The notes below the pieces were generated by a model that saw nothing but the letters and a program-made list of their open reading frames with translations, did no database searches and was not told the DNA's origin. From the UHGV virus genome UHGV-0014912: a DNA stretch of 33,704 nt; one strand, given 5' to 3'. The stretch comes from a virus. The position numbers were made by a program, and so were the translations under genes. The number at the start of each line of letters is the position of its first letter. Position 1 is the first letter of the stretch. Shown piece after piece: positions 1 to 18,225 of this stretch.

Positions 1-270
1 GTTAAGCGAGATTTTGTGCCTGGCAGGCCATTGGGTTGAGAATATTAGAGTATTGGAAGCGCATTATAAGTTCATTCCAGCTCACAGTGAAATCAGATGT
101 GTACGAAATCACATTTTTTGCCTTTGGCTTGAGTGTAGACCTTAAGCGAGGAGCAGGATCTTCTTTCAGACTTATGGCATAATGCGCGGTTTGTCATATC
201 TCTTTTCAGGATACGCCTGTGTTAGTTTCCAGTAACGTCACAATATAGTTTCAAAGCGACAAAATCAAGA

Positions 271-295
271 CATCAAAAGGGAGCACGAGGCTCCC
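271..295 (-). terminator. Intrinsic terminator downstream of the tape measure gene
   Basis: Hairpin GGGAGCACGAGGCTCCC (279..295) preceded on the plus strand by AAAA, giving a U-run after the stem on the minus-strand RNA. Confidence 0.55.
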
Positions 296-300
296 ATTAG

Positions 301-2700
301 TTACATCTTGCGTCTGTTGCTGTCTTGAACAATAGCCGCGATGTTCTGTTGCTGACGTTTTAATTGTTCAGCAAACCAACGCTGATCAGTAACATTTCCA
401 TTTACGTGAATACTCGCGTCGATTTTTGTTGCTTCTCCTGTTTTGTTATTATCCAAGAATTCTTTTAAGTCGCCGTTTGTGCGTTCATCAACAACACGTT
501 CGCCACCATCAAGCAACCATGTCCCTTCTCTTGGCACTTCTGAAATACCATCGTGAGCCATACCAGTAATATTCACTGATTTCATCTGCAAGACTTGTCC
601 GATAACTCGCGCATAGCTTGAAGCAGCCATAGCGTAACCCATTGGACCAGGATATTTAGCCATTGCAGCAGTTGCGGATTCATAAGCGTTTAACATACCG
701 CTTGCGATTGCTGTACCCTTTTGAATAGCAAATACAGCTTGAGCAGCGTCTGAACTTTCACCTGCGATGCCAGCTATTATTGAACCCATACCAGAAGCAA
801 ACCCGTTATACATTTGGAGTTTCGTCTGAGTTTCCAAGAAAGTAATTTGTTTCGACTTCGCGGCATACGCTTGGTCAAGACGTGCTTTCTGTTGCAGGAA
901 CTGCTCGTGACTGATTAACTGACCATCATATAATTTCTGGTTCTGTTCGCGCATTTTCTGAAATTGTTCATCTAATGCGGCTTGTTGAATAGCCATTTGT
1001 TCTTCGTCAGTTGCAAAACCCAACGCACTAAGATTTTTGATATTAGCCATATTACCATTGCCGCTCGTTGCTTTAATAGCTTCAAGACGTGCCTGATGGT
1101 CTTGCTGTAATGCTTCAATCTGTGTGTTGTATTCTTGCTGACTGATTAACGACTGTGCTTTCTTCGCTTCAAGTTGTTCAAGCTGTTGCTGATATACAAC
1201 TTCAAGACTTGTCGTGATTGCTCCAATTTCTTCAGGACTCGTCATAAGAGTCTGTTTAAATTCTTCGTTAGATGTTTTAAACAGCATGTTTCGGCGTTTC
1301 TTAGCCTGTTCAGCGGAGATAATTCCTTTTTTCTCAAGTTCTGAGATGGTTTTAATAGCCTGATGAACTTGACTAACCTGATTTGAAATCGTTCGACCTT
1401 CTTGACTCAGAATTGCAGCATCAAGACTGGAAAGATTCTGTAACGCAGCCTCCCTGTCTTGCATCATCTTATCGTAGGCAGCTTTAGATTCTCTTGCGGC
1501 TTGCTCCTGTAAGCGTTGCTTTTCTTTAGCAGCGCGTTCTTGTTCTCTTGCTACTCTATCAGCTTCGCGTTTAGCGTTATCAGCTTCTTTTTTCGCTTCC
1601 TCAGCGGCTTTCTCATTACGCTGTTTCTGCAACTTCGCTCGTGTTATTTCGTCTTGCTTACGTTTTTCATAAGCTTTATCACCTTGAGCTTTGGTCTTTT
1701 TCAGAAAACGTTCTGTCGTATCAAGATAATCTTTTTGCAGTTTACGTTGACCTGCGCCAGAAGTCGGGTTAGCGTCTGCATAAGCATCAACAACTGAATC
1801 CGCCATCCAATTAGCTAACATCTTATCAGGACGTAAGCTGTCGATTTCAGTAAAGAAGTCGAGAATACTAGTAGCTGTCCATTCTTTATTCGCGATGTCA
1901 TAAAGATTATTCATCTTAGTGACTAACGGGTCCATAACGTTAACAGCTAAATTATCCAAGTTCACAGAAAGAGTTTTCATCTTTTCATCGAATTCTTGGT
2001 ATTCCCTTGCTGTTTCGTTTGTAATACTAGCTGATTGGTTATTGATAGCGTTTAATGCTTCTTGAGTTGAGCCGTATTTTTCAAGAACAGTAATCAAGTG
2101 AGAACCGTCAGACGCCATAGACTCCATTCCGTTAACGATTTCGGCTTGACTTGCACCAGCTTTTTTCAAGTCATAATAAGTCTGAACAAGTGCTTTAATA
2201 CCGCCTTCGGCGTCGTTAATATATTGAGTGTATCGCTCAAGACCAATACCCCATTTATCAAGGTCATCACTAATACCGCCTGCACCTTCTCTGAATGAAT
2301 CACCGAGATGGTCGAGAGTATCTTTGTTAAGATCTCCGAAACGGTCAATTTCAATTCCTGTAGCGCGAAATTCTTTTTGAAGCTGTTGCAGATATTCAAC
2401 TGAAAGTCCAGTTGACGTAGAGATCTGATTAAGTTCTCTTGTTTTTTCTAAAGCGGTATTAAGAACAGCTACACCTGCGCCTGCTGCCATTCCTGCGATC
2501 CCCAGAGCTTGCATACCTGAGGACATTCCTGCAATAGTTGATATTCCACTGTTGAGATTATTCAACGGTCCTGTCATATTACTAAAAAGCCCATTAGCAA
2601 TCGAATCGAGTTCGTTCAGTTTCTCCATAGACTTATCAATAGATTTTGAAAGGCCTTTGTTATCTCCGTTAATCTCAACGTCATAACGTGATTTAGCCAT
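301..2700 (-). CDS. Tail tape measure protein
   Basis: 799 aa; long K/E/A/Q-rich coiled-coil centre, Gly/Ala-rich hydrophobic C-terminal segments (GFASGMGSIIAGIAG...), directly downstream of a G/T-like chaperone pair. Confidence 0.6.
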   Translation of the reverse strand: MAKSRYDVEINGDNKGLSKSIDKSMEKLNELDSIANGLFSNMTGPLNNLNSGISTIAGMSSGMQALGIAGMAAGAGVAVLNTALEKTRELNQISTSTGLSVEYLQQLQKEFRATGIEIDRFGDLNKDTLDHLGDSFREGAGGISDDLDKWGIGLERYTQYINDAEGGIKALVQTYYDLKKAGASQAEIVNGMESMASDGSHLITVLEKYGSTQEALNAINNQSASITNETAREYQEFDEKMKTLSVNLDNLAVNVMDPLVTKMNNLYDIANKEWTATSILDFFTEIDSLRPDKMLANWMADSVVDAYADANPTSGAGQRKLQKDYLDTTERFLKKTKAQGDKAYEKRKQDEITRAKLQKQRNEKAAEEAKKEADNAKREADRVAREQERAAKEKQRLQEQAARESKAAYDKMMQDREAALQNLSSLDAAILSQEGRTISNQVSQVHQAIKTISELEKKGIISAEQAKKRRNMLFKTSNEEFKQTLMTSPEEIGAITTSLEVVYQQQLEQLEAKKAQSLISQQEYNTQIEALQQDHQARLEAIKATSGNGNMANIKNLSALGFATDEEQMAIQQAALDEQFQKMREQNQKLYDGQLISHEQFLQQKARLDQAYAAKSKQITFLETQTKLQMYNGFASGMGSIIAGIAGESSDAAQAVFAIQKGTAIASGMLNAYESATAAMAKYPGPMGYAMAASSYARVIGQVLQMKSVNITGMAHDGISEVPREGTWLLDGGERVVDERTNGDLKEFLDNNKTGEATKIDASIHVNGNVTDQRWFAEQLKRQQQNIAAIVQDSNRRKM

Positions 2701-3055
2701 TATTCACCTTTTTTGTTTTTCTCAGTTTAACTTTATCCAACAGAGCTGGGTCGAACATCGATTCAATAGCTTTCTTACGTTTAAGCTCCTGTTGTTCTTT
2801 CTCTTTTTCGATTTCTTCTTGAGACTTAAACACAGAATCTTTAATAAGCTGATGGTCTTTCATGTTCAACTTTTTTCTGTACTCTTTGGTCAGATTCGGG
2901 TTATTTGCTTCGATAGTGTGAATCAATCGAGCTTGATAGAAATCGTTATAGACAGGACTTTGTGGTTCAATAAACGAGTCGAAAAACCATAATTCGTAAT
3001 ACATCATTACGGACATCTGTTGAATTTCTTCGTTTGATAATCCGCGACGTAACAT
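2693..3055 (-). CDS. Tail assembly chaperone, T-like frameshift extension (probably expressed as a G-T fusion)
   Basis: Reading frame stays open upstream of its first ATG and overlaps the 3' end of the 3091..3399 ORF in the -1 frame; sits immediately upstream of the tape measure gene. Confidence 0.4.
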   Translation of the reverse strand: MLRRGLSNEEIQQMSVMMYYELWFFDSFIEPQSPVYNDFYQARLIHTIEANNPNLTKEYRKKLNMKDHQLIKDSVFKSQEEIEKEKEQQELKRKKAIESMFDPALLDKVKLRKTKKVNNG

Positions 3056-3090
3056 TGTTCGATACTGAAATGATTTTGCCCAGTTCTGCC

Positions 3091-3399
3091 TTAGTTCTTT
3101 TCCAGAACGTCTGAATCCTTAGTCAGAATACTAGCGTTTGAAACAGCGCTTGCGAGTTGTGAACGAACAGTCGTATAAAGTTTCTGAACTTGAGCGATTT
3201 CTTTAAAAACGCTTGTTCCGTCTTCGTGCTGAATGCAATTTAGAATCATTCGGTCGTTACGTTCTTCTGTGTTTTCATTTTTGAAATAGAATTCACCAAA
3301 CTCGGATACAGTCATCGGACGTGCATAGAATTTATAACCGTTGATTTCAACAGGTTCGCGTTTTGGTGATAGTGATGCTAACATTTCATCGAAATTCAT
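3091..3399 (-). CDS. Tail assembly chaperone (G-like)
   Basis: 102 aa ORF directly before the T-like ORF and tape measure gene; 28-nt -1 overlap containing GGAAAAG. Confidence 0.45.
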   Translation of the reverse strand: MNFDEMLASLSPKREPVEINGYKFYARPMTVSEFGEFYFKNENTEERNDRMILNCIQHEDGTSVFKEIAQVQKLYTTVRSQLASAVSNASILTKDSDVLEKN

Positions 3400-3435
3400 T
3401 TTTGTTTCCCTTTGTTGAGTTTTCTTTTATTTATG

Positions 3436-3460
3436 AAAAAGGGAGCACGAGGCTCCCTTT
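3436..3460. terminator. Bidirectional intrinsic terminator; second copy of the GGGAGCACGAGGCTCCC hairpin
   Basis: Same 17-nt stem-loop as at 279..295, flanked by AAAAA upstream and TTT downstream. Confidence 0.55.
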
Positions 3461-3461
3461 G

Positions 3462-3779
3462 TTATTTCCATTGAAAGAAATATCCGTACATTCTGAAACC
3501 TTTGTGGATATATTCAATCATTCCTAAGTTCTTCGCTTCGGTCTCAAAAAATGGACCTTGCAGTCGAACTGTCTGTCCTAATTTGAAATGACAATTAGGT
3601 TTTTTCTTCTGCGTTGATACAATAAAAACGTTTTTATCGTTGAACAGATATTTTTTAATGCGCTTATCTTTGATGTGTTCACAACTGTAAGGAACAGTCA
3701 TTGACTCTGGATTAATCTCATTAACGTAGATGTCGGCAAGTTCTTCTAATCTGTAAGTATCAAAATCGTGAATGTTCAT
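3462..3779 (-). CDS. Hypothetical phage protein
   Basis: 105 aa ORF with GGAG-type RBS and CTAAATAAAG motif upstream; no motif recognised. Confidence 0.35.
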   Translation of the reverse strand: MNIHDFDTYRLEELADIYVNEINPESMTVPYSCEHIKDKRIKKYLFNDKNVFIVSTQKKKPNCHFKLGQTVRLQGPFFETEAKNLGMIEYIHKGFRMYGYFFQWK

Positions 3780-3794
3780 TTTCTCTCCTTTTGA

Positions 3795-3804
3795 CTTTAT
3801 TTAG
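3795..3804 (-). promoter_or_regulatory. CTAAATAAAG motif (late-promoter-like) upstream of the 3462..3779 gene
   Basis: Exact 10-mer (minus-strand sense) about 17 nt upstream of the ATG with an RBS in between; one of four exact copies, all upstream of minus-strand gene starts. Confidence 0.4.
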
Positions 3805-4339
3805 TACCCGCAACACGCTTAACTGTTTTTAAAATATCGTCAGAGATTTGATTCCATGAACCCAGAGTTTTTCTTCTGTGTTGATTTTTCTTGAATACAG
3901 CAATTAAACGACGGTCTTGCTTTTTAACGTTAGTTTTAATGAGGATCGTTCGAGTTACGCCATCTTTTTTCTGCTTGACAGCTTCAAGATTATTTCTTGA
4001 TTTCAAGTTAGGAATGTTACCGAATTTGTTTTTTGAACCTCTTACGCCAGTTGGAACAAACTTGTTAATTCCTTTGTTATCATCAATCAACGGAGCAAGA
4101 TAATCAGCCTGCTTGTCTTTGATGTATATCCTATTTCGTGACCCGTTCTGATCGTATCTGAAACTGAAACCTACAGCGTTCTTAGTGAAATTAACTGGTC
4201 CATCGACTCGTCTATTGATTTTTCTTTGCAACTCAACAGAAGCAAGTTTAGACGCTTTGGTCACTTTCTTACTGAACACGTCAGATTCTTTGATTCGCCA
4301 TTTTTCAAGGTCTTTCATGACATCTTTTGCTTTTGCCAT
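3797..4339 (-). CDS. Hypothetical basic phage protein
   Basis: 180 aa, Lys/Arg-rich; start overlaps the stop of the upstream ORF (ATGA). Confidence 0.35.
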   Translation of the reverse strand: MAKAKDVMKDLEKWRIKESDVFSKKVTKASKLASVELQRKINRRVDGPVNFTKNAVGFSFRYDQNGSRNRIYIKDKQADYLAPLIDDNKGINKFVPTGVRGSKNKFGNIPNLKSRNNLEAVKQKKDGVTRTILIKTNVKKQDRRLIAVFKKNQHRRKTLGSWNQISDDILKTVKRVAGTK

Positions 4340-4536
4340 TAGTTAGCTCCTGACATCAGAAGCGTCCCAAATGTTTTTATCTGTTCTTCGCTGATAAGAA
4401 TCATCTTAGGTGCATTAATATCGAAAGCTTGAAGAACAGGAACAGCAACAGTGTTATAAGTTATAGTAACGAGAAATAGAACAATAAGATAATCTTTAGC
4501 GTGTTTTGCCATTGCTTGGAGATATTTCATTTTCAT
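4339..4536 (-). CDS. Small membrane protein (possible holin-like); true start may be internal
   Basis: 65 aa with one hydrophobic helix (LIVLFLVTITYNTVAVPVL); overlaps the 3' end of the endonuclease VII gene. Confidence 0.25.
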   Translation of the reverse strand: MKMKYLQAMAKHAKDYLIVLFLVTITYNTVAVPVLQAFDINAPKMILISEEQIKTFGTLLMSGAN

Positions 4537-4972
4537 ATTTCACCTTTATTTGGTTTGAATAGACTTTTTCAAGCTCCTTTTTCGTTTTGAGATTTGAACC
4601 TGTGATAGCTTTCATCTCAGAAAGATTTTTTCGAGAGAACGCTTTCTTTAAATCAGAAATAAGTTGTGGATGAGTAGGATTGTCTGAGTAGTCTTTTTCA
4701 AGATACTTAACAAGATTCTTTAAAAACTCTATGTAGTCGATTTTCCCATCGAGACCTGAACGTTTAAACTGATGTTTTATTCTGCCCTCGAGGACGTTTG
4801 CTTGAGCGATTAATAATCCTCTGCATCTGCCTGCGTTAGAGCCGGTTAAAATATGGTCGTGGTCAAGATGGGCTTTATTAACTTCATGAATCTTTATGCC
4901 AGTTAAAGCACAAAGACCTTTTTGCTTTTGAAAGAGTTCTTGCTTATAAATCGGAATCTCTTTTCTTTTCAT
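4496..4972 (-). CDS. Endonuclease VII-like Holliday junction resolvase (T4 gp49 family)
   Basis: Motif block HLDHDHILTGSNAGRCRGLLIAQANVLEGRIKHQFKRSGLDGKIDYIEFL matches my recollection of T4 endonuclease VII (HLDHDH...VRGLL...EG..KH.F.RSGL). Confidence 0.7.
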   Translation of the reverse strand: MKRKEIPIYKQELFQKQKGLCALTGIKIHEVNKAHLDHDHILTGSNAGRCRGLLIAQANVLEGRIKHQFKRSGLDGKIDYIEFLKNLVKYLEKDYSDNPTHPQLISDLKKAFSRKNLSEMKAITGSNLKTKKELEKVYSNQIKVKYENEISPSNGKTR

Positions 4973-5253
4973 TTTCCTCTTAGAACTGCTAGGTCGATAT
5001 CTAGCTTTGCTGTCCTTCCTTCTAAATTCTTCAAATCAGATTTGACCTCTCGAACTTCATCCTGTTGTCGTGTTAAATCGCTTATAAGCGAAGCATCTTT
5101 GGCGTCATTAACTGCGATGCTTTTTTCGATGTCTGAGAAACGTTTTTCAAGGTCAAGTCGTTTTTCATTGTTTGATTTAATTTCGGTATAAACCCAAGCC
5201 AAGAAACCTCCTAGAGCACCCAAGATGGAAATGATCAGTGCTATATCGACCAT
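4969..5253 (-). CDS. Membrane-anchored coiled-coil protein (i-spanin-like or assembly protein)
   Basis: 94 aa; N-terminal TM helix (IALIISILGALGGFLAWVY) followed by a charged coiled coil. Confidence 0.3.
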   Translation of the reverse strand: MVDIALIISILGALGGFLAWVYTEIKSNNEKRLDLEKRFSDIEKSIAVNDAKDASLISDLTRQQDEVREVKSDLKNLEGRTAKLDIDLAVLRGK

Positions 5254-5283
5254 CTTGAATCTCCTTTTTAAAGACCTCCTTGT

Positions 5284-5293
5284 CTTTATTTAG
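5284..5293 (-). promoter_or_regulatory. CTAAATAAAG motif upstream of the 4969..5253 gene
   Basis: Exact 10-mer about 33 nt upstream of the ATG. Confidence 0.35.
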
Positions 5294-5295
5294 AA

Positions 5296-8200
5296 CTATA
5301 CTTTACTAATAAAGTAAACTGCTCTTGATGCTACCGCACGGTTCAACTCAGCCGTATATGTTAAGTCAACAGCTTGACCAGCTTCGATATAAGCGACACC
5401 ACCGTTTGAGCCGTTTAACGAACGGGATTCCGTGTAAACAACTTCCTGACCGTTTGATAATCTCAGCCACGCTTTACCACCGCCCCAACCAGTACCGCCT
5501 GAATATGTCCAACCTGAAATAGCAACGTTAGGAATAGCAATCATGCGTCTCCAGTTGACAGCAGGAAAATGAACTGTTCCCCACGGATCTATAAATCCCA
5601 TGTCAATAACGTCGCCTTCAATTCTGTCAGCGTATACAGTTCCTGTGAAATAACCTGAACCGCCTCTGATTTCTCCTGAGAAATAACCTGAGTCAGCTTG
5701 AATATTTCCTTTAACGTTAACGTTTTGGAAAGAAGCCCAACCGTCTTTTCTGATTGTCCAACCTTGAGTACCACCGGAAGAGAACCAGTTGTCAGAAGAT
5801 ATTTCATAAGCAATCTGAGCCGAACCGATCTGAGCATTACCAATTTTCGCTGATGTAATAGCACCGTTTTCAATCTTCGCGTTGTTAATAGCAGCATCGC
5901 GAATCTTTGCCGTATCAATTGAAGCGTTTGCAATCTTCGCATTACCGATTGAAGCATCACGAATCATAGCATCTTGGAGATAAGTCTTGTTATCTGCAAC
6001 CATGAACGGAGGAACAGCACCTTCAGGAGTGTTGTTATTCGTAATAGCGATTTTATCAGCGTTGAAAATAATGCTTGATGATTTCGAACCGTCAGCATTT
6101 TTATTAGCGAGCATACTGATACCAGCAACAACACCGTCGGCATTAGTCTGAACTGCCCATTTGCTGTTAATAGTTCCTGTCAGTTCGTCAACACTTGCTT
6201 TTGCTTCTGTTGAAACACTTGCAATTGCTGAGTCAGTTTCAGCTTTCAGTTGGCTAATTGCGCTTGCTGTTGCTTCTCTATCGTTAGCTTGAGTTTTTTC
6301 AACAGTCGTGATAGCAGCGTTTAATTTACCGTCAAACTCAGCCGATTGAATAGTAATAGCCTGATTGATAGCGCCATTCGTTCCATCAGTTATTTGAGTG
6401 TGTAACTCAGCGTTTTTGGTAATAATCGTCTGATTCAGTTCTGTTGTTACTTTTTGCTCCGACGCTATAACTTCTGTATCGGTATATTCCTTAGCAAGTT
6501 TCAAAGCGTCTTCAATAGCACCGTCAACGCGTTCGTTCAGGTCTAACAAGTCTTCTAATTGGTCTTTCATATCGTCGTTCCATGGAATATCCCATTTCAT
6601 ATCGATATAAGTCGCCTGTGACCAAGTAATCTGGTCTTGTCCGAAAACGTCATACCATGCTGCACGAACATAATATTGACCATCTTCTAACGGGAAGTTG
6701 TCTAAAAACGGACTTGAGCTTGAATAAACGTGAACAATTTCATTAAAGCTTTGGTCTTTCGCAATATGAACAATTGTGCCTTTGAAGTCAGGTACTTCAG
6801 GAATATTATCACGTGGGTCATTCCATGAACACATCAGCATTCCAGGACCATTCGAAGCTGTGAAACCTTGAATTGCAGGAGCTTGATTGTTCTTGACAGT
6901 AATAACACTCGGATCTGATTTCATACCAGCGTGACCGTATGCAGTAACAGAAACTTTCAGTTCGCGACTCAGACCATTACCCAAGTTCATATTAAAGTCG
7001 TATACAAAACCTAAATCTTTAGTCTTGTAAATTACAGGTCGTTGACCTTCGATTTTAATTTCGTAATACTGAAAAACTTCACCGAATGTCTGTAACGTGT
7101 CGTCAACATAGAATTTCTGTGCGCTCTGGTCGTCCCAGGCGAATTCAAATTGAGTCTTGTTAGTGGTGTACTGATCCTCAACCGCGTTCGTTAGGCGCAA
7201 TCCTGTAACGCTTGGTAAGTTATACGTAACATCAGGGTTAACGTTATTCACATATACCCATTCTGAACGATACACAACACCAGAAGCACAAACACGAATA
7301 TCAAATTTCTGATTAGGGTCAAGACTCATAATCAAGAAATAATCGCCTGATGTGAAACCTGCTTGAGTCCAAGAGTTCTGACCAGCAAGACTATACTGAA
7401 TATAATAACCTGCGCGGTTATAATCAGGTTCAGACGTCCATTGCACTTTCAAAGTTCTTCCTAAAGCGGTTTCAGCAACTGCTTTAACTGTCAGATTCTT
7501 CGGTGGAATAAGAACAGCTTTGTTAGGAATGTTACTTCCTGAGTTATCAGGGTCTTTCGCGTAGTCAAGATCGGTATAAACTTCTTCGATATATTCAGCA
7601 GCGGTAATAGTAACGATACCAGCAGCACCTTTTTCCATCGTGCGATCAACGTTAGTTACACGCCATAAGGAATCAGTCAGTTCCAGTTCTTCGAAATTAA
7701 CTCTGATAATATCCCAGACCTGAACGGTATAAGCATCAGCAGACGAAAAACTAATAACCTGTTGTAACAGTGATTTGTTTCGTTCTATTGAAGCAATTTT
7801 GTCCAACTGAGCTTTATCTTTAACGAATCTGTAACTAATATCTTTTGCGATAATACGTTTATCTTTTGCGATAGTTCCATCATTTGTTACGTCAGACGGA
7901 TAACGAAGAACTTGGTCAGAATAGTCAATCAAAGGATCTTGATATTTCACGTTCAGAGTGTTGTAGTAATTCTCTGTTCCACCATCGTTCAAGCTAACAG
8001 TTCCGGCGTTAATATTATCCTCGTTGAAATCATATTGAACAACACCAGGACCATCGATAACGCAAGTAACTAATCCGAAAGACTCTGTGATAATACCGTT
8101 AAAAGCACCTGCAATCTGAGTTAAGTTTTCTTTGAATGAACCATTCGGGTCAGTTGCACCGTTTGAAAACAGACTGTTCAGTTTTGCGTGTTCTGCACAT

Positions 8201-9467: not shown

Positions 9468-9947
9468 TTAAGCTTCTGGAGTAGTCGTATCGATAACGCC
9501 TGAAGCAACTGGACCACCGTCAACAGAAAGTGTCAGAGTCAGACCAGAAACTTCTGATTCTCCACCATTGTGAACAGCGCTTGACAAGAAACCGTTATAC
9601 ATTTTCGCAACGCCCAGATCTTTAGCAGCATCGACCCAATAAACGATTTTGAACTGACCACGTTTACCATCTTCCGCAAGCTTAATCAGAACATCATGAA
9701 CGCTTTCTGGAATATAGTTAACAGTCAAGTCGATATCAGGAACAGAACCACGACCAACAAGCTTACGAGAATACTTATGAGAGAAGTTCGGAGCTGTAAT
9801 AACTTCACGCTCAATACCAGTAGAAGGGAATGCACCAGTCTCTGGAATTTCAACGAATTTGTCGTTATTCAAGTCTGTGTTAGTGATATCAGAGTTATAG
9901 AACACACTGACGTAAGAGCCAGAGAAAATATCAAATTTATCAGCCAT
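9468..9947 (-). CDS. Putative major tail (tube-like) protein
   Basis: 159 aa; loose pattern resemblance to lambda V; TATAAATA element 30 nt upstream and a strong terminator downstream, consistent with a highly expressed structural gene. Confidence 0.35.
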   Translation of the reverse strand: MADKFDIFSGSYVSVFYNSDITNTDLNNDKFVEIPETGAFPSTGIEREVITAPNFSHKYSRKLVGRGSVPDIDLTVNYIPESVHDVLIKLAEDGKRGQFKIVYWVDAAKDLGVAKMYNGFLSSAVHNGGESEVSGLTLTLSVDGGPVASGVIDTTTPEA

Positions 9948-9976
9948 TTTGTTTTCCTATTTGAGTTAATATAGTT

Positions 9977-9984
9977 TATTTATA
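9977..9984 (-). promoter_or_regulatory. TATAAATA element (T4-late-promoter-like) upstream of the 9468..9947 gene
   Basis: Minus-strand TATAAATA about 30 nt upstream of the ATG. Confidence 0.3.
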
Positions 9985-10006
9985 AAGGGAATTCCTCCCC
10001 TTTTTG

Positions 10007-12829
10007 TTATTTAGCTTCAAGTTCTTTAACGCGAGCACTTAATTCCTTGATAGCGTTAACAAGCAATGCGTTTACAGCAGCAGGGTTAACACCAAGAATT
10101 TCATCTTCACCGAAAGAACTAACAGCTTCTGGAAGAACTTCTTTTAAGTCTTGAGCAATAATACCTGCTTCTCGAACTTCGAATGAATATTCAGTTTCGA
10201 CTAAATCGGATTTCTTATCGTATACGTAACCAGTAAGTTTCTCGACTTTATCAACTGCGTTTTCAATTTCTTCAAAGTTTGATTTCAGACGTTTATCGGA
10301 AGTGCTAACCCATTGTGGAGCACTTGCTGTTCCGTTACCATCGAAGTGATAGTTTGCACCACCCACGTGTAATTGAGCCGCTGGTGCTGCGCCTTCTGGA
10401 TTATAAACGTCCATCGCAGCGCCATATTCTGAACCCCAGTGAACATGTTTCCAGATATTGATACATTTATTACGCGCAGGAGCTTCAACAATCATTCCAG
10501 CAGGACGTATACGCCATGCACCCCAATCAGCCCATCCCTCAACTTGACCTTGAATCATCGCATTACCTTCTCCAGTTCTAGTATTTCCTACGTAAATACC
10601 GCGAGATTCATTAGGAGAATTAACTGCAATTTGACGAACAGTATTTAATCCTGAAGGATTAAACGTAGCAAGATGAATCGAATCTGTAATAATCTCTAAA
10701 TGTCCGTCAGTTCTTTGACGAATACCAGTATCATTATCCCCAAAGGTGATAGAGTTCCCGCCTATACTGTTATGAGTGTTAACACCGAAACTCGTAATTC
10801 TATTTGTTTCAACTTGTTGAGCGTTAACCTTATTCGTAAAGAAGCCACCATAAGCATCAAAAATATAATTTGCTGCAATATCTTTTCGACCTTCTTCGTT
10901 AATACTTGCAACTCTAAGAACACCTTTGCCATTATCAATTGCGTTGTCTCTGATCATACCCAGTTCAACACGAGTCGGCCAACCTTTACCAAGTGAAACA
11001 CTTTGTAAACCATATCCAGGATAATAATCGCTTGTACCGGCTTGGTCACCAAATTCAATTGTTACAGGAGGAAGTTGATTCCATTGGTCTGCCCAAGCGT
11101 GACTATTGTCAGCAGCCCATTTTCTTCCGTCGATTATAATGTTTTTTTCGTGAAATCTTGCAATTCTATTACCGCCTACATTAACACCGAAGTATTTGTT
11201 TCCTGAATCCAACTCCAAGTCAACAGTAGAACTTTCGTCTTGATTAATAGTAGAACGTGCAATTAATCTATTCTCACCAGGACTTAAACGACCAAATAAC
11301 CATGATGTTTTGTCACCGTCTGTGCCTCTAATATATGCAGCTTCGCGGTTTTTCGTTTTTAGATTAATCGCTTCATATTCAGCAGACGTATTAAAACGAG
11401 TTGCGTTAATTGTTCCGTCACCTTGCATCGAAGCAATAAAATTATCAGGTCCAACACCGTGAAACCAACTGATTGAGTTAGTAGCTCTAGGATCGTCGCT
11501 TTGACCAACAACAGCTTCATGAAAAATAGTTAGGTCATTTCTAGCTCTCAGTTTACGAAGATGGTTTGATTGTTGCTCCTGAGCATTCCAAACAGGCAAA
11601 GATTCGCTATCGTAGCTTCCGTAAGACTTGTAGTTATAAATCGTCTGATAGAAACTTGCAGGACCAGAAACACCAAGACCTTCTTTAGTATCAATAAAAG
11701 TTCTGCCTGAGCCTCTCAGATAATGATAATATTTTCCCGAGTTAACTAATCCGAAATAACTTGTTGCATCACCAACGTTATTTCCATCTGTTGTCGTATC
11801 TATTTGAATTAAGGCATTACCTTCAGGAGCTATCTCATTAACATTTCCATCGGCATCACTTCTGAATCGGAAATGAGTTTTTCTATTAAAGAAGTTCTCC
11901 GAACCTGCGATAGAAGCTGTTACAACGTTATTTGAATAGAAGTTTAACCATCCGTCTTCTCTCCATTTAAAGCCTGTATCAGAATCTCCCATCATAATAC
12001 TATTAGAACCTAAGGCATTAGGATTAGAACCAAGATTTATATAATTTGTTTTAATACCATCTGCATTTAACTTAGGAACAGTTAAGTCTCCTGTCATCGT
12101 ATCACCAGACTTACTGACTTTTTCGTTAATCATATTAGTCAGAGTCTGATTATCAACAGTCAGTCGGTCATTAACTGCTTTAATCTTTTCGTCGGCATCA
12201 GCTTTATTCGCATCAACTTTGGTATTAATAGCTGTATCGTTCTGGTCAACTTTTGAATTCAGATTATCAACGCGAGTGTTAATAGCCGCGTCGTTAGCAT
12301 CGACTTTCTGTTCGAGTTTCGTCAGGTCAGCACTTGAGCCTGTTTGGACTTTACTGATTTCAGAATCAACGTAATCTTTACGAGTAGCGCTTTCAGGAGC
12401 AGCAGGAGCAGAAGGTAAAGAAAACTGACCATTACCGTTAAGCACAAAGTCAGAACGCTCTCCTGTAGCTTTTCCTTTCTCTACCGTAATACGAAGTTCG
12501 CCTTTAGCGTCTGTCTGAGCAGGAGAACTAATACGCGCTTTTGCTTTACCGTGTTCATCAGCAAAAACAATATCGCTTTTATCAAGATTTTTTAAAGTCA
12601 GATTCGAATCGGATTCGATATAACTTGCTTTAATTTTGCCAGTAAAGGTCTGACCGCCTTCAACAACAGCGTCAGCACCATTACCGATGTTAATAACAGA
12701 GTCGCCTAGTTTAGTGAAAATCTTTCGATCGGCTAAGTTAATAGCGATTTCACCATCAAGCATGTTTTTTGCTTCTGGCTTTCTTCCGGCGACGTCTGTT
12801 CTATAATGTTTAACTTTGTTATTTGCCAT
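10007..12829 (-). CDS. Tail fibre protein with C-terminal intramolecular chaperone (S74-type autoproteolytic) domain
   Basis: 940 aa; periodic coiled-coil repeats (NTRVDNLNSKVDQNDTAINTKVDANKADADEKIKAVNDRL); C-terminal block (SDKRLKSNFEEI...GVNPAAVNALLVNAIKEL...ELEAK) typical of endosialidase-type chaperone domains. Confidence 0.65.
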   Translation of the reverse strand: MANNKVKHYRTDVAGRKPEAKNMLDGEIAINLADRKIFTKLGDSVINIGNGADAVVEGGQTFTGKIKASYIESDSNLTLKNLDKSDIVFADEHGKAKARISSPAQTDAKGELRITVEKGKATGERSDFVLNGNGQFSLPSAPAAPESATRKDYVDSEISKVQTGSSADLTKLEQKVDANDAAINTRVDNLNSKVDQNDTAINTKVDANKADADEKIKAVNDRLTVDNQTLTNMINEKVSKSGDTMTGDLTVPKLNADGIKTNYINLGSNPNALGSNSIMMGDSDTGFKWREDGWLNFYSNNVVTASIAGSENFFNRKTHFRFRSDADGNVNEIAPEGNALIQIDTTTDGNNVGDATSYFGLVNSGKYYHYLRGSGRTFIDTKEGLGVSGPASFYQTIYNYKSYGSYDSESLPVWNAQEQQSNHLRKLRARNDLTIFHEAVVGQSDDPRATNSISWFHGVGPDNFIASMQGDGTINATRFNTSAEYEAINLKTKNREAAYIRGTDGDKTSWLFGRLSPGENRLIARSTINQDESSTVDLELDSGNKYFGVNVGGNRIARFHEKNIIIDGRKWAADNSHAWADQWNQLPPVTIEFGDQAGTSDYYPGYGLQSVSLGKGWPTRVELGMIRDNAIDNGKGVLRVASINEEGRKDIAANYIFDAYGGFFTNKVNAQQVETNRITSFGVNTHNSIGGNSITFGDNDTGIRQRTDGHLEIITDSIHLATFNPSGLNTVRQIAVNSPNESRGIYVGNTRTGEGNAMIQGQVEGWADWGAWRIRPAGMIVEAPARNKCINIWKHVHWGSEYGAAMDVYNPEGAAPAAQLHVGGANYHFDGNGTASAPQWVSTSDKRLKSNFEEIENAVDKVEKLTGYVYDKKSDLVETEYSFEVREAGIIAQDLKEVLPEAVSSFGEDEILGVNPAAVNALLVNAIKELSARVKELEAK

Positions 12830-12841
12830 TTTCTTTATCCG

Positions 12842-13870
12842 TTAAAAAACTCCTGCATCTAAGGTTTCTCCTAACGCTACACAATTAATCTCTAATGGAG
12901 TTGGTTTATTACTTGGAGAATAGACTTCTGAGCCTTTGACCTTTACAGAAGTTGAGTTAATTTCATTACTATTTAGAGCCAGAATTTCACCTTGAGGAGC
13001 AGAAATCTTTTTACGTACTGTCAGATATTCCTCAATAACAAGTGAACCTTTCAGAGTTCCACCAGTAATTGGCAAAGCGTTAATATCTTCAGGAGTAGGA
13101 CGTTCAAGTTCTGTATAGACTTTCACCCACGGAGATTCTGTAACAGTTTCGTCGTGTGCAAGTTGCTTATTTCTGATTCTTATACTTGGATTACCGACTG
13201 ACGAACCAATAAGCTCCCAACCTTGACCATCAGGATGCTGAATAGCCATAGCAGACGTGCCAGAGTTATAAGGGTTATCGCTGTTCATTGCATCAACTGT
13301 TATCCATCTATTACCAGTTAATAGACCTAAGTCTTTGACACCCTCGATTTCTTCTGTACCAGCACCAACACCATAATCACCAACGTTTAACGGAGTTGTG
13401 AATTCAGCAAAGCCAGTAAAAATCTGACCATCAGGAGAAAGATTAAAAGTCGTAGTAACAACTGAGTTTTCGGAGCCTGTTGTTTCTTTCTTAGTTACCC
13501 AAGCGTTGAAAATATGATACAGACCGGATTCATTTTCTTTTTTCGATTCACCATCGATAACATAAAGGTTTCTGAATCTGATCAGTTTCTTTTCCATTAG
13601 CGCTTCGTCAAGCAACTGATAAACTGGGTCATCAGAAGTTTCAAAAAGACTTATAGAAGTGTCATTAACTGTTACATCACCAGATAATTTAACCGTAAAG
13701 TCATCGCGAAAGTCTTCCAGCGATTGGACATCTTTCTTGAAACCGATAACAGGAAAAGCAGCAAGATTCGCAGTTGAAATATATCCTGGGTCGTTATAAC
13801 CGGGGTGCTCAACGACTTCTGGGTTTACTGAAACTCTTACGTTATTTCCTACAAAAATATCATTTGTCAT
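12842..13870 (-). CDS. Tail structural protein (tube-like or fibre-associated)
   Basis: 342 aa between the head-tail genes and the tail fibre; C-terminal LPITGGTLKGSL resembles the GGTMTG motif of fibre shafts. Confidence 0.3.
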   Translation of the reverse strand: MTNDIFVGNNVRVSVNPEVVEHPGYNDPGYISTANLAAFPVIGFKKDVQSLEDFRDDFTVKLSGDVTVNDTSISLFETSDDPVYQLLDEALMEKKLIRFRNLYVIDGESKKENESGLYHIFNAWVTKKETTGSENSVVTTTFNLSPDGQIFTGFAEFTTPLNVGDYGVGAGTEEIEGVKDLGLLTGNRWITVDAMNSDNPYNSGTSAMAIQHPDGQGWELIGSSVGNPSIRIRNKQLAHDETVTESPWVKVYTELERPTPEDINALPITGGTLKGSLVIEEYLTVRKKISAPQGEILALNSNEINSTSVKVKGSEVYSPSNKPTPLEINCVALGETLDAGVF

Positions 13871-14600: not shown

Positions 14601-14625
14601 AAAAAGGGACCCCTTTCGGAGTCCC
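14601..14625 (-). terminator. Intrinsic terminator after the major capsid gene
   Basis: GGGAC...GTCCC stem-loop with flanking A/T runs, immediately 3' of the capsid stop. Confidence 0.55.
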
Positions 14626-14644
14626 TTTGATTAATCAATTAAGA

Positions 14645-16615
14645 TTATTTTGCAGCTTTAGAACCAGCAGCTTCTGCTTTTTCATACAGATACAGACGGT
14701 CGTCAGCACAAACTTTCCAATCGATGTCAGCCCAAACACGTGGAACGATAGCACCGCGTGATTTGTAAGTTGTATCGTCCAGGTCAAGTGCAAGACCTTC
14801 CCATTCAGCAACAGTAACAGCAGAGAAATCACCAGCGATAACATTACCATCTTTCACCAGACCGGATCCGATAACGTCCTGTCCGCCGATTTTGTTCATG
14901 TCGTCGATGATATAACCAGCAACGTTCTGATCACGCAGGGTGGTTTTCAGATCACCTTCAAGAGCAGCAGCCATCAGATATTTGAACTTAGCCATTTCAA
15001 CGCCGTTACCTTTAGCTTTTGCAGCTTCAACGATGAACTCTTTGTAGGACATTCCCATTTTCTGAGCTACTAACTGTGCAACGATACTTTCTGGAGCTTT
15101 AGCATCGGTAATAGAACCGAACATCAGACCTTCCAGTTTAGCGCGAGACTGTTTTACGATGTGATCAGAAATGAAGCTTCCCAGATTAGGCATAGTCAAC
15201 AGAGCCTGACGAGAGATTGGGTTACCACCAGTAAATGTCTTAGGCATGAACTGAATGTTGGTAAATGCGCTTTCACCTTCTGGAGATTCACCGTTTTCGT
15301 CAACGAAACCGAATGCATCAACTGAGGATTTAGTCTGCTTAGGAACAGAAATTGGAGTTGTCAGACCGGTCAGGAAGTTCATTCCCAGTTGATCAGCAAC
15401 AGTGCCTTTCAGAAGCATTTCAACGAATGAATCGTAACGCTGAACTTCTTGCTGTACGCTTGATACAGTAGAAACGGTGTTGATTGCGCGGGCGTTCTGA
15501 GCAAGAGTATTAACAGGCAAGAAAATACCAGTCGAAACGTTCTGACCACGTTGTAGACGCTTACGAGTCATTTCCTGAGTATATTCAGCAGCAGCACCGC
15601 GAACAGCTTTACCAGCCATCATAGAGCGAACAGCATCACCAAGGTCGAATTTATTTTCCAGATTTACTTTAGTATCTTTAGTCATTTTACGAATTACCGC
15701 CGGAGCTTTGTTAGGTTTAATAGAGCGTTTGAATGCACGAGCTGTCATGCCTTTTGCAATTGCGTTCGCAACTTCTTTCTGCGGAACTTTATAACGTTCT
15801 GCGACTTCCAGAATTTCTTCTGTTTCTTCTGCGCGTTCTTCTTCTGTCAGTTCGTCATCAGCATGGGATTTATCAGTTTCGGTAACAGCAACGTCACCAG
15901 CTTGTTCTGCGTTTGCTTTATCTTCTGCAAGAATTTCTTCGCGTTTTGCGCGAGCTTCTTCTGGCATTGATTCAATTTCATCGATAGACATATCGGTCAA
16001 TTCTTCAATCGCCATTTCAACGATTTCGTCAACGGTAATATCTTCAAAACGTTTCATCTTATTTCCTCTATTTGTTGAATTTAATTTTTCGCGCAATTTC
16101 GTAGCGCTTTTGTTATCTGTATTTAGAAGTCTTCCCAGCCCAACAAAATCGTCAGCAGGAACAGTTACGAAACTAATTTCGTATGGTGCCCATTTTGTAA
16201 CTAACAGATTATCGCCTTGAAGTTCATATTCATTGATGTCGTATCCGAAGGAGATTTTACTAATAGTTCCTTCTTTAACTTTTTCATAAACTTCTTTAGC
16301 TAATGCACCGTGTTTACTAAATTGGACTTTTGCGCGACCAAATCGGTCACTATCGATTCGAACAGAACCAGGAATTACTTTTCCCAGATGATTATCGAAA
16401 TTATGATTGAACAGCAGAGCCGCACCATTATTAATTCGAGTCAAGTCGGCATTATCTGGACCATCGTGAACAAGAATTTCATTAACAGTAACAGGGTGAC
16501 CATATTCGTTTTCAATCTGACGCTCGACAGGAGTTTCAGAGCTAAACGCAATTTCAAAAATACCATCGGATTCAGTAATATCTTGAACTGTATACTCGCG
16601 TTTTAATTTAAGCAT
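14645..16615 (-). CDS. Prohead protease - scaffold - major capsid protein fusion (HK97-fold capsid), with an in-frame internal start for a capsid-only product
   Basis: Single ORF; N-terminal ~165 aa protease-like, acidic scaffold-like linker, C-terminal capsid-like region; ORF track start at 16627 is TTG, ATG at 16615 has a GAGGA RBS; internal in-frame ATG at 16057 with AGAGGAAATAAG RBS. Confidence 0.65.
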   Translation of the reverse strand: MLKLKREYTVQDITESDGIFEIAFSSETPVERQIENEYGHPVTVNEILVHDGPDNADLTRINNGAALLFNHNFDNHLGKVIPGSVRIDSDRFGRAKVQFSKHGALAKEVYEKVKEGTISKISFGYDINEYELQGDNLLVTKWAPYEISFVTVPADDFVGLGRLLNTDNKSATKLREKLNSTNRGNKMKRFEDITVDEIVEMAIEELTDMSIDEIESMPEEARAKREEILAEDKANAEQAGDVAVTETDKSHADDELTEEERAEETEEILEVAERYKVPQKEVANAIAKGMTARAFKRSIKPNKAPAVIRKMTKDTKVNLENKFDLGDAVRSMMAGKAVRGAAAEYTQEMTRKRLQRGQNVSTGIFLPVNTLAQNARAINTVSTVSSVQQEVQRYDSFVEMLLKGTVADQLGMNFLTGLTTPISVPKQTKSSVDAFGFVDENGESPEGESAFTNIQFMPKTFTGGNPISRQALLTMPNLGSFISDHIVKQSRAKLEGLMFGSITDAKAPESIVAQLVAQKMGMSYKEFIVEAAKAKGNGVEMAKFKYLMAAALEGDLKTTLRDQNVAGYIIDDMNKIGGQDVIGSGLVKDGNVIAGDFSAVTVAEWEGLALDLDDTTYKSRGAIVPRVWADIDWKVCADDRLYLYEKAEAAGSKAAK

Positions 16616-16668
16616 TTTAGTCCTCAAGATTGAGCGTCTTTCGACGCTCTTTTGTTTTCTGAATATAT

Positions 16669-18225
16669 TTAGATGTCCTTCCCAGAGTTGTCCGAATTAA
16701 TTTCTGCAACCTCAACTTGTGCACCAGCAGCAAGTTGAGCAGGAGCCGCAGCAACTTTAATTTGATTATCGTACTTAGGAATATAACGATTTCGTTCCTG
16801 TTCAATCTGAGCAAACACCATGTCTGGATCTTCACCACGACTAATAATAACGTCAGCAGCAGATTTAAAACCGTTTTCAACATCAATAGAGTCTTTCTGA
16901 GAATCTTTAATTGGGTCAATTGATTCCCACGCTGGATAAGTCCAAGAGATTTTGCTTAGAACCAGAGGAATAGCAGTCATCTTAATGTCAACTTGCTCTT
17001 TAAGAATTGCCCATCCTAACCATTTCTCGAAAATAACCTCGAAAACTTGCTCTTTAAGGTCACGCTGAACAGATTTAAACATCACTCTTTGAGCTTGATC
17101 ACCGAAGCGAGCCGCGGAGTAGTTAATATTTGCAGTGTCACCTTTCCAGCCTTGCTTATAAAAGCCATAACCCATTGCAAGGTGGTCTTCCAAACGATCG
17201 GTAAAGCTAATGAAATCATCACCGCCTTGAGTGCTTGTAAATTGCTTAATATCATGACCTGCAGGCAATTGATGAATCGTACCAGCTTCGAATTCTTGAA
17301 TAATATCAGGAGCAGCATATTCTTTGTCTTCGTCGTCTTCTGCCAGATCGATACTTTCTTGACCATCTTTATCCTGAGTGATGAAGCCCATAGAACTTGC
17401 GGCAGCACGTTTTTGAACCAGAGTTGCAAAAGCAAAAGCGTTATATTGATTCATAGTGTCGATATTCGCCACAGCTTCTGGAATACCTCTGCGTTGATCA
17501 GGAAATAATTCTCTGTAATAGTGAATAATCTCGTTAGCAGGAACACCGTAACAATCACCGCCTTCTGTTTGTGTCGATTGATTCATTTCTTTAAACCAAT
17601 AACGAACAGGAGCGTCGTCGTTGTCGTATTCGATACCATCTAGAATATAACCGTCGTCTGTTTGCTGTCTGTCACCGTATTTACAGCGGGCAGCTTCGAT
17701 AATCTCCAGTTTGAATTCATCATCTTCGTGAATTCTGATAAAAACTTCACCGTCGATAAATCGTGAACGTTCTACGAGTTGTTGAAAACGACGCCAGTTA
17801 ATACGTCTGTTTTTGCTAAAGCGTTTAGCGTTTTTTGACCAGAATTCAAACTGAGTCATAATTTCATTGTTTAGCTGAACATTAGGACGTCCGTCAGTTC
17901 CTAGAATTCGAACCTGAGGATTAATTCCTTCACCAATAACGTTATCAACTTGATACTGAACAGCGCGTTTACCCAAAGGAGTATTAATGCTGATAGTTCT
18001 GGACATCGCTCGTACGTTGTCAGCAGATGAACGAATTTCGTTATTGATTGTTGCAGTTCTGATTAACGATTCTTGAAAATCGTCATCAAGTCGATCTGTT
18101 CTTGGACCAATCTGACGTTTTAATTCATTACCAAAAGCTGTATCGTTGTTAATAACAAGTTTCGGACTTTTTTGTTTTCGCTGTTTTGATTCAGGACGTT
18201 TTCTGAACCAATCTAGAATATTCAT
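16669..18225 (-). CDS. Portal protein (lambda B-like)
   Basis: 518 aa; block NYSAARFGDQAQRVMFKSVQRDLKEQVFEVIFEKWL resembles the lambda B region SYSSARASANESWRYFMGRRKFIAARLATQMF; follows the large terminase. Confidence 0.65.
   Translation of the reverse strand: MNILDWFRKRPESKQRKQKSPKLVINNDTAFGNELKRQIGPRTDRLDDDFQESLIRTATINNEIRSSADNVRAMSRTISINTPLGKRAVQYQVDNVIGEGINPQVRILGTDGRPNVQLNNEIMTQFEFWSKNAKRFSKNRRINWRRFQQLVERSRFIDGEVFIRIHEDDEFKLEIIEAARCKYGDRQQTDDGYILDGIEYDNDDAPVRYWFKEMNQSTQTEGGDCYGVPANEIIHYYRELFPDQRRGIPEAVANIDTMNQYNAFAFATLVQKRAAASSMGFITQDKDGQESIDLAEDDEDKEYAAPDIIQEFEAGTIHQLPAGHDIKQFTSTQGGDDFISFTDRLEDHLAMGYGFYKQGWKGDTANINYSAARFGDQAQRVMFKSVQRDLKEQVFEVIFEKWLGWAILKEQVDIKMTAIPLVLSKISWTYPAWESIDPIKDSQKDSIDVENGFKSAADVIISRGEDPDMVFAQIEQERNRYIPKYDNQIKVAAAPAQLAAGAQVEVAEINSDNSGKDI

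Follow-up and report, generated by a model that had tools for sequence, protein, structure and literature searches.

The DNA analyzed here, UHGV virus genome UHGV-0014912 (33,704 nucleotides; hereafter the window), carries a gene in which a prohead protease, a scaffold-like region and a major capsid protein are fused in a single reading frame (14645..16615, minus strand, as are all parts of the gene described below). Comparison with related genes suggested that this fused gene is translated from nested in-frame starts on one mRNA, a reading to which we assign a probability of roughly 0.65. Initiation at ATG 16615 would produce the full 72-kDa protease-scaffold-capsid chain. Initiation at ATG 16057 (Met187), probably more frequent than at 16615, would produce a 51-kDa scaffold-capsid chain without the protease, and ATG 15685 (Met311) is perhaps also used, giving a 37-kDa chain. 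Because the C-terminal capsid domain would be shared by all of these products, they would be expected to assemble together into one procapsid. A minority of subunits, the full-length chains, would carry the protease into it on a covalent tether, in place of the non-covalent targeting of HK97 gp4. Once the procapsid had formed, the protease would cleave off the part N-terminal of about residue 375-390, and a capsid protein of ~29 kDa would remain. The released peptides would exit, the shell would expand and the DNA would be packaged.

The listing of open reading frames (ORFs) gave a single open frame at 14645..16627, which would encode 660 residues if started from TTG 16627. The true start is almost certainly ATG 16615, which gives 656 codons and a TAA stop (14647-14645), with a predicted product of 72.3 kDa. 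This assignment was made because a Shine-Dalgarno (SD) sequence, GAGGA (16621..16625), lies 5 nt upstream of the ATG, every aligned homologue has the N-terminus MLKLKR, and the database protein P0001, which is 100% identical to the window protein, is 656 residues long. The duplex of this SD with the 16S tail has an energy of -5.9 kcal/mol. TTG 16627 overlaps the SD, and its use as a start is unlikely. The frame was clean, and both frameshifting and a hidden stop were ruled out. The original prediction of a protease, a scaffold-like region and a capsid protein in one frame of 656-660 codons without a stop was borne out by the ORF and by the presence of PF04586 and PF05065 in the same frame, and the internal in-frame ATG it had placed at 16057 was found there (16057-16055).

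The N-terminal region (residues 1-165; 16121..16615) is a Peptidase S78 (HK97 gp4-type) prohead protease domain, as indicated by Pfam, the structural model and the alignment. The Pfam match, Peptidase_S78 (PF04586, Caudovirus prohead serine protease), covered residues 66-158 with an E-value of 6.6e-12 and a score of 46.3 bits against a cut-off of 21. The AlphaFold2 model, built from a 32-sequence alignment, had a mean predicted local distance difference test (pLDDT) value of 71 and consisted of four folded blocks parted by low-confidence linkers at residues 152-188, 301-312 and 374-395. The first block, residues 1-151, formed the compact, beta-rich core of the protease, with pLDDT values of 65-84 up to residue 150. 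His50, His71, His76, Ser100, Ser122 and Ser148 were invariant in the 32 aligned sequences, and Ser122 is a candidate for the catalytic serine. A PDB sequence search with the protease domain returned chance matches only (chaperonin TCP-1).

The scaffold-like propeptide region (residues 187-383; 15467..16057) was delimited from the secondary structure and pLDDT of the model and from composition. It begins at the end of the disordered segment 152-188 and contains two helical parts, residues 195-299 and 316-373, with the disordered residues 301-312 between them. The first helical part is acidic, and Asp and Glu make up 30% of residues 187-300. Behind the second, the chain was again predicted to be disordered (residues 374-395) before it entered the last block, an HK97 fold spanning residues 396-650.

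The HK97-fold major capsid protein proper corresponds to residues ~384-656 (14648..15466; ~29.4 kDa) and is the part expected in the virion. Here Pfam identified Phage_capsid (PF05065) at residues 397-643, with an E-value of 2.8e-7 and 30.7 bits against a cut-off of 24.2. When the model was compared with the PDB by Foldseek, the best match was 8GTA, the capsid of roseophage R4C (E 3e-17), followed by HK97, D3, the gene transfer agent (GTA) and other HK97-fold capsids (E range 1e-17 to 1e-11). The family profile also found 8GTA by sequence (E 6e-31), in a match that began at profile position 385. The 8GTA chain has 268 residues, compared with the 629 residues of the R4C gene 006 product, and its residue 1 is residue 362 of the precursor. 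Thus, for at least one relative whose virion has been imaged, the shell shows no more than the last ~270 residues of the chain. The R4C structure paper contained no discussion of processing. By extrapolation from R4C, the mature capsid part of the window protein would start at or before about residue 384 and have a mass of about 29 kDa.

This domain order is widely conserved. The window protein matched PHROG 617 ('major head protein') from residue 4 to 639, against profile positions 5-612 of 626 (E 1.5e-79), and PHROG 4523 is designated 'major head and protease protein'. Matches in the protein database numbered more than 2000, most of them from enterobacterial genomes, and both Pfam domains were present in all 120 among the matches listed. 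The protease and the capsid protein always formed one ORF in 99 complete related loci (35 clusters at 70% identity). A tblastn search extended the family, at ~25% identity over the full length, to VP882, phiHAP-1, the Xanthomonas FoX phages, Persinger, Mica, ep3 and Rhodobacter phages, all annotated 'major capsid protein'. Only the protein-level search succeeded; when the gene was run by megablast against 50,697 phage records, no match was obtained. The literature already describes a fusion of the major capsid protein with the protease (PMC8601537) and a 'protease-scaffold-capsid fusion' (PMC7302621), the latter presenting the fusions of small-genome actinophages as single genes, and the fused protease-capsid genes of Arthrobacter phages have likewise been described as single genes (PMC5513430). 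As the PHROG profiles, homologues, loci and literature already show the fusion, the architecture by itself is not novel. The window gene adds a member to an already known family of such genes, and the comparison indicates that the fused frame is a conserved state of this large family and not a sequencing slip.

The evidence for nested initiation concerns first the internal start candidate Met187 (ATG AAA; 16055..16057), whose product, residues 187-656, would have 470 residues and a mass of 51.4 kDa and would contain the scaffold and capsid parts without the protease. An internal SD, GAGGA (16064..16068; context AGAGGAAATAAG), lies upstream of this ATG at a spacing of 6-7 nt. It is formed by the codons AGA GGA, both of them minor in the window gene (AGA, 2/30 Arg codons; GGA, 10/46 Gly codons). 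SD sequences were scored as uninterrupted matches to TAAGGAGGTGA(TC) at a distance of 4-11 or 4-13 nt; free duplex energy by itself proved too permissive a score. Comparative DNA was taken from IMG/VR loci, from 11 contigs encoding named homologues and from 7 GenBank phage records, and a scan of genome contigs yielded 5 loci. The set used for both internal sites comprised 19 distinct relatives with DNA, at 50-91% identity.

In all 19 relatives, the first in-frame ATG past the protease motif PADDxVGLGR was preceded by an SD (AAGGA, GAGGA or AAGG). The SD was at least 4 nt long and located at 6-10 nt in 18 of them, and the 19th (L093) had twin ATGs, the second of which was correctly spaced. The other in-frame ATGs over the whole gene were SD-preceded in 28 of 291 cases (9.6%; Fisher 7e-16, not corrected for phylogeny). 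The later ATGs of the linker, three to five per relative, were never preceded by an SD. The linker around the site was variable in length and sequence and was otherwise unalignable, and the SD was spelled in several ways: AGA-GGA (RG), AAA-GGA (KG), GAA-GGA (EG), AAG-GAA (KE), GAG-GAA (EE) and ACA-AGG-AAA (TRK). Preservation of the SD through differing amino acids and codon registers points to selection acting on the nucleotides rather than on the protein.

Met187 is also favorably placed in both the protein and the transcript. It lies at the end of the predicted disordered segment 152-188. The mRNA around it had a mean unpaired probability of 0.69, within the top 4% of the gene (mean 0.46, standard deviation 0.11), and was more open than at the first start (0.33), which is the one hint that the internal product may outnumber the full-length chain. 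The combination of an SD and the first linker ATG was also found in distant isolated phages, namely R4C (GGAGG-5-ATG), VP882 (GAGGTG-5-ATG), ep3, Persinger and Alexa; FoX5 lacked it. Over the whole family it occurred in 17 of the 32 clusters having a linker ATG, against a background of 12.6%. The conserved ATG and SD, the position at a predicted domain boundary and the open mRNA are the signature expected of a nested start of the lambda C/Nu3 type, and this reading is supported by the sequence comparison. The earlier proposal of two products sharing a C-terminus, in the manner of lambda C/Nu3, therefore found support as far as computation reaches.

Several observations weigh against this interpretation. 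The SD of Met187 has a duplex energy of -6.0 kcal/mol, which is moderate, and about 11% of the codon positions of the gene equal it. The original prediction had described a strong ribosome binding site at 16057; the SD is indeed present, but its strength was overstated, being the same as that of the gene's own start. Taken alone, the window gene has 2 SD-preceded ATGs among 19 internal ones against a background of 10.7%, which is not significant, and synonymous resampling of the 7 upstream codons gave P = 0.17. As two of the 19 internal ATGs carry such a motif, the signal of the single sequence is not beyond chance, and the significance comes from the comparative data. The 19 relatives, for their part, are linked by phylogeny and do not count as independent cases. 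Linkers of this kind are rich in Lys, Glu and Gly, whose codons readily spell AAGGA, and Lys-Gly pairs yield AAGG regardless of codon. In addition, 8 of the 35 clusters had no SD-preceded internal ATG at either site, while 27 had one at one or the other. The position of the mature N-terminus, finally, is an extrapolation from where the deposited chain of a relative begins, and that relative is ~22-26% identical.

A further difficulty was posed by several clades in which the acidic linker, ~130 residues long, contains no Met. These included L019, L053, L037, L030, L002 (a Leclercia metagenome-assembled genome), L068, L022, L033 and others, in which the linker is of low complexity and rich in Glu, Thr, Gln and Pro. 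Neither Met nor GTG or TTG was found at profile positions 158-235 of these linkers, so a start directly after the protease is impossible there. A restart of the 16057 type is thus not universal, and it is not required for the architecture to work.

The second in-frame start candidate, Met311 (15683..15685), would give a product of residues 311-656 (346 residues, 37.4 kDa) made up of a short propeptide and the capsid domain. The SD-like sequence upstream of it, GGCGGTAAT (15693..15701; duplex -6.5 kcal/mol), includes a rare GCG Ala codon. The Met311 ATG was kept in 19/19 relatives, and codon -5 was a rare G-ending synonym or ATG (Met) in 18 of them. The G-ending forms were GCG (Ala; 1-12% of Ala codons), ACG (Thr), TCG (Ser), GTG (Val) and AAG (Lys), with usages of 1-26%. 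L012 had ATT at this codon but retained AGGT in the following ones. The choice at codon -5 builds GGT(G/A), often GGTGAT, 7-12 nt upstream of the ATG. In other clades, including an E. coli prophage clade at 41% identity, an ATG was found a few codons downstream, preceded by AAGGA with the minor Lys codon AAG. The clades with the Met-free linker also carried AAGGA and an ATG at this second site. Across the family, 20 of 27 clusters had an SD and an ATG there (profile positions 300-320). In the window protein, Met311 terminates the predicted disordered segment 301-312, ahead of the helical block 316-373, and it has the weakest local mRNA structure among all in-frame ATGs (-3.7 kcal/mol).

These features suggested that the Met311 start may be as important as that at Met187, or more so. 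In the strongest form of this alternative, which we consider doubtful, though better placed than any other rival, Met311 would be the principal internal start, with use of Met187 also possible. The main building block would then be a 37-kDa chain resembling HK97 gp5, with a propeptide of about 73 residues ahead of the capsid domain, and residues 187-310 would serve mainly as a tether or scaffold on the full-length chain only. The second site is the more widely conserved of the two (20/27 clusters against 17/32) and is present in clades without any linker Met; the rare codons at position -5, the weak mRNA structure and the location between a disordered segment and a helical block argue in the same direction. 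Yet in the clade of the window the SD of Met311 is degenerate, with 0 to 7 contiguous matches at a distance of 7-12 nt, whereas a clean AAGGA or GAGGA precedes Met187 in every one of the 19 relatives. The lineages of ep3/Persinger/Alexa, R4C and VP882 also lack an SD-preceded ATG at the second site.

Nested initiation could also be more elaborate than a single restart. We tentatively propose, as a possibility that falls well short of the main nested-start reading in likelihood, that three nested starts (Met1, Met187 and Met311) would let a single gene set the ratio of protease, scaffold and coat in the procapsid. Such an arrangement might be widespread and unannotated among proteobacterial prophages, in thousands of them, and clades might differ in whether they use one internal site or both. 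In the literature on capsid fusions and on nested protease/scaffold genes, we found none that reports translation starting within a fused protease-scaffold-capsid gene. A nested-start variant of this family, possibly with two internal sites, is plausible in view of the consistent comparative evidence, and we found no earlier description of it.

The gene could alternatively encode a single polyprotein and nothing else. Every subunit would then be a full 72-kDa chain with its own protease, which would remove itself and the scaffold after assembly, and the internal ATGs and SDs would not be starts. The internal motifs would be left over from a time when the genes were separate, or would arise incidentally from coding rich in Lys, Glu and Gly. 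We consider this unlikely, at odds of somewhat worse than one in four. It accords with the clades that manage without a start of the Met187 type, with the description of the actinophage fusions as single genes (PMC7302621; PMC5513430) and with the fact that the window's own SD is not beyond chance. Space would be no obstacle to it, since by a rough estimate 415 copies of the 43-kDa internal part still fit a T=7 procapsid. A relic, however, would not retain an ATG and an SD in 19/19 lineages while the length and sequence of the linker and the codon register of the SD shift. Nor would it account for the rare G-ending codons upstream of Met311, which are fixed although the amino acid they encode is one of five. 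Even the Met-free clades still keep AAGGA and an ATG at the second site, and Met187 and Met311 both fall at the ends of predicted disordered linkers. An artefactual fusion, in which a sequencing or assembly error or prophage decay removed a stop between separate protease and capsid genes, found no support beyond the damage seen in some prophage copies, such as an IS3 insertion in two E. coli genomes, and was rejected as extremely improbable, since an identical 656-residue protein occurs on independent contigs and the fusion is conserved as one ORF in all 99 complete related loci, including that of an isolated phage with imaged virions (R4C).

The public annotation of these genes was found to be uneven. 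Near-identical full-length proteins (the P0001/P0121 cluster of database matches) carry the name 'HK97 family phage prohead protease' in some entries and 'phage major capsid protein' in others, and either name covers only half of the product. In the two E. coli genomes NZ_AP027790.1 and NZ_CP112988.1 (hits H44 and H45), the homologous fused gene is interrupted by an IS3-family transposase, and as a result of this split RefSeq annotates a separate 'prohead protease' and 'major capsid protein' there. The closest isolated phage was Escherichia phage DCP80 (PQ671644.1; locus L001), a 141-kb record filed under Straboviridae/Tevenvirinae. Its positions 1-8000 carry a lambda-like terminase - portal - fused capsid module, in which the fused capsid gene is 61% identical to that of the window and annotated 'hypothetical protein'. 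The record has the look of a chimera, or of a second phage that was assembled along with the first.

The fused gene is bordered on both sides by predicted RNA hairpins. An intergenic stem-loop, GAGCGTC-GAAA-GACGCTC (16632..16649, minus strand), lies between the stop codon of the portal gene (16671-16669) and the SD of the fused gene, confirming the hairpin that had been noted upstream of the protease ribosome binding site (16649-16632). Hairpins of other sequence, usually with a GAAA or UUCG loop, were found at the same place in L001, L007, L010, L011, L018, L089-L094 and L097-L099, and none was found between the portal and capsid genes of L012 and L013. In L095 (190-390) and L096 (179-391), an extra gene of 66-70 residues (Pfam PF17594, GP57) stands between the portal and fused capsid genes, in the place of the hairpin. 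Alignment of the intergenic region by MAFFT followed by RNAalifold gave no consensus hairpin, because the stems were misaligned. When stems of equal length, picked by folding each sequence, were re-aligned by hand, all 7 pairs in the six sequences had changed on both sides, with 100% of cells paired, and 0/500 shuffles matched this; the alignment was thus fitted to the structure.

The window hairpin has no T-run after it on the gene strand and is terminator-like only on the opposite strand, while in L010, L018, L098 and L099 a TTTT run follows. At the other end, a strong intrinsic terminator, AAAGGGACTCC-GAAA-GGGGTCCCTTT followed by TTCGTTTC (14603..14628, minus strand), follows immediately on the stop codon of the capsid gene, ahead of the next head gene. 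The terminator scan gave it 11 pairs, 6 of them GC, and a T-run. Together with this terminator, the intergenic hairpin may delimit or stabilize the transcript of the capsid gene, or it may attenuate read-through from the portal gene.

The genes upstream of the fused gene encode a lambda-family portal protein (16669-18225), a head-tail joining protein and the large terminase. The window is an E. coli prophage with a large serine integrase, located beside ybiT. At the prophage end (30417-33704), a 501-residue large serine recombinase (PHROG 95) adjoins the host gene ybiT, which is 99.8% identical to that of E. coli, suggesting an integration site beside ybiT. An unusual order of tail genes was seen at 9468-13870 (minus strand), where a 940-residue fibre gene similar to T4-type distal long tail fibres (PHROG 1699, 9e-107) is flanked by two genes, of 342 and 159 residues, that both match the major-tail-protein PHROG 158.

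If the internal starts are used, these common fused capsid genes would encode two or three proteins and not one. The strength of initiation on one mRNA would then control the number of protease and scaffold units entering each procapsid, which would explain how a covalently fused protease is kept at a sub-stoichiometric level. The principle of lambda C/Nu3 and of herpesvirus UL26/UL26.5 would be extended to the coat protein itself. Annotation of these genes would improve, and the design of self-processing nanocontainers with the HK97 fold would be aided. If the starts are not used, the gene would be an ordinary member of a known family.

Among the closest known systems are the fusions of PHROG 617/4523, which include R4C gene 006 and those of VP882, phiHAP-1, Xanthomonas FoX and the RcC-cluster phages of Rhodobacter, with analogous genes in small actinophages. 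Their order is that of the window gene, with an S78 protease, a helical and acidic middle and an HK97-fold capsid in one ORF, and the window gene differs from the PHROG 617-type fusions only by sequence divergence. HK97 itself has a protease of the same Pfam family (S78) and the same capsid fold, and the scaffold function resides in the N-terminal propeptide of the capsid protein, which the protease removes. In HK97, however, the two proteins are encoded by two genes, gp4 and gp5, and gp4 is packaged through non-covalent binding. In the window gene, protease and capsid instead share a frame and are connected by ~35 disordered residues, and the propeptide is about twice as long. The tripartite capsid gene of Gifsy-2, an enterobacterial lambdoid prophage with a T=7 head, reportedly (Virology, 2010) encodes an N-terminal protease, a central domain of roughly 200 residues presumed to act as scaffold and, at the C-terminus, the capsid protein. 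Its protease is said to be ClpP-like and not S78, and its capsid to be lambda gpE-like and to use a decoration protein of the lambda gpD type. As the window protease is S78 by Pfam, the resemblance between the two genes is probably one of architecture only.

The proposed mechanism resembles the arrangements with nested protease and scaffold products. In lambda C/Nu3, Mu I/Z and herpes simplex virus 1 (HSV-1) UL26/UL26.5, an internal in-frame start just past the protease domain yields an abundant C-terminal product that shares its C-terminus with the rarer full-length protease. Like lambda C/Nu3, the window gene has an in-frame ATG (16057) with GAGGA at 6-7 nt just past the protease domain. The precedent set by lambda and HSV-1 has been joined by gp17 of HFTV1, whose nested start was demonstrated by Ribo-seq and mass spectrometry (bioRxiv 10.64898/2026.09.13.751334). 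In all four of these systems the capsid protein has a gene of its own, whereas in the window gene the shared C-terminus is the coat protein itself. The protease would accordingly be tethered to a shell subunit and not to a scaffold molecule as in systems of the C/Nu3 type, and there are possibly two internal starts instead of one. With the capsid domain forming the C-terminus of the same ORF, the window gene may work like lambda C/Nu3 but is not a member of that arrangement.

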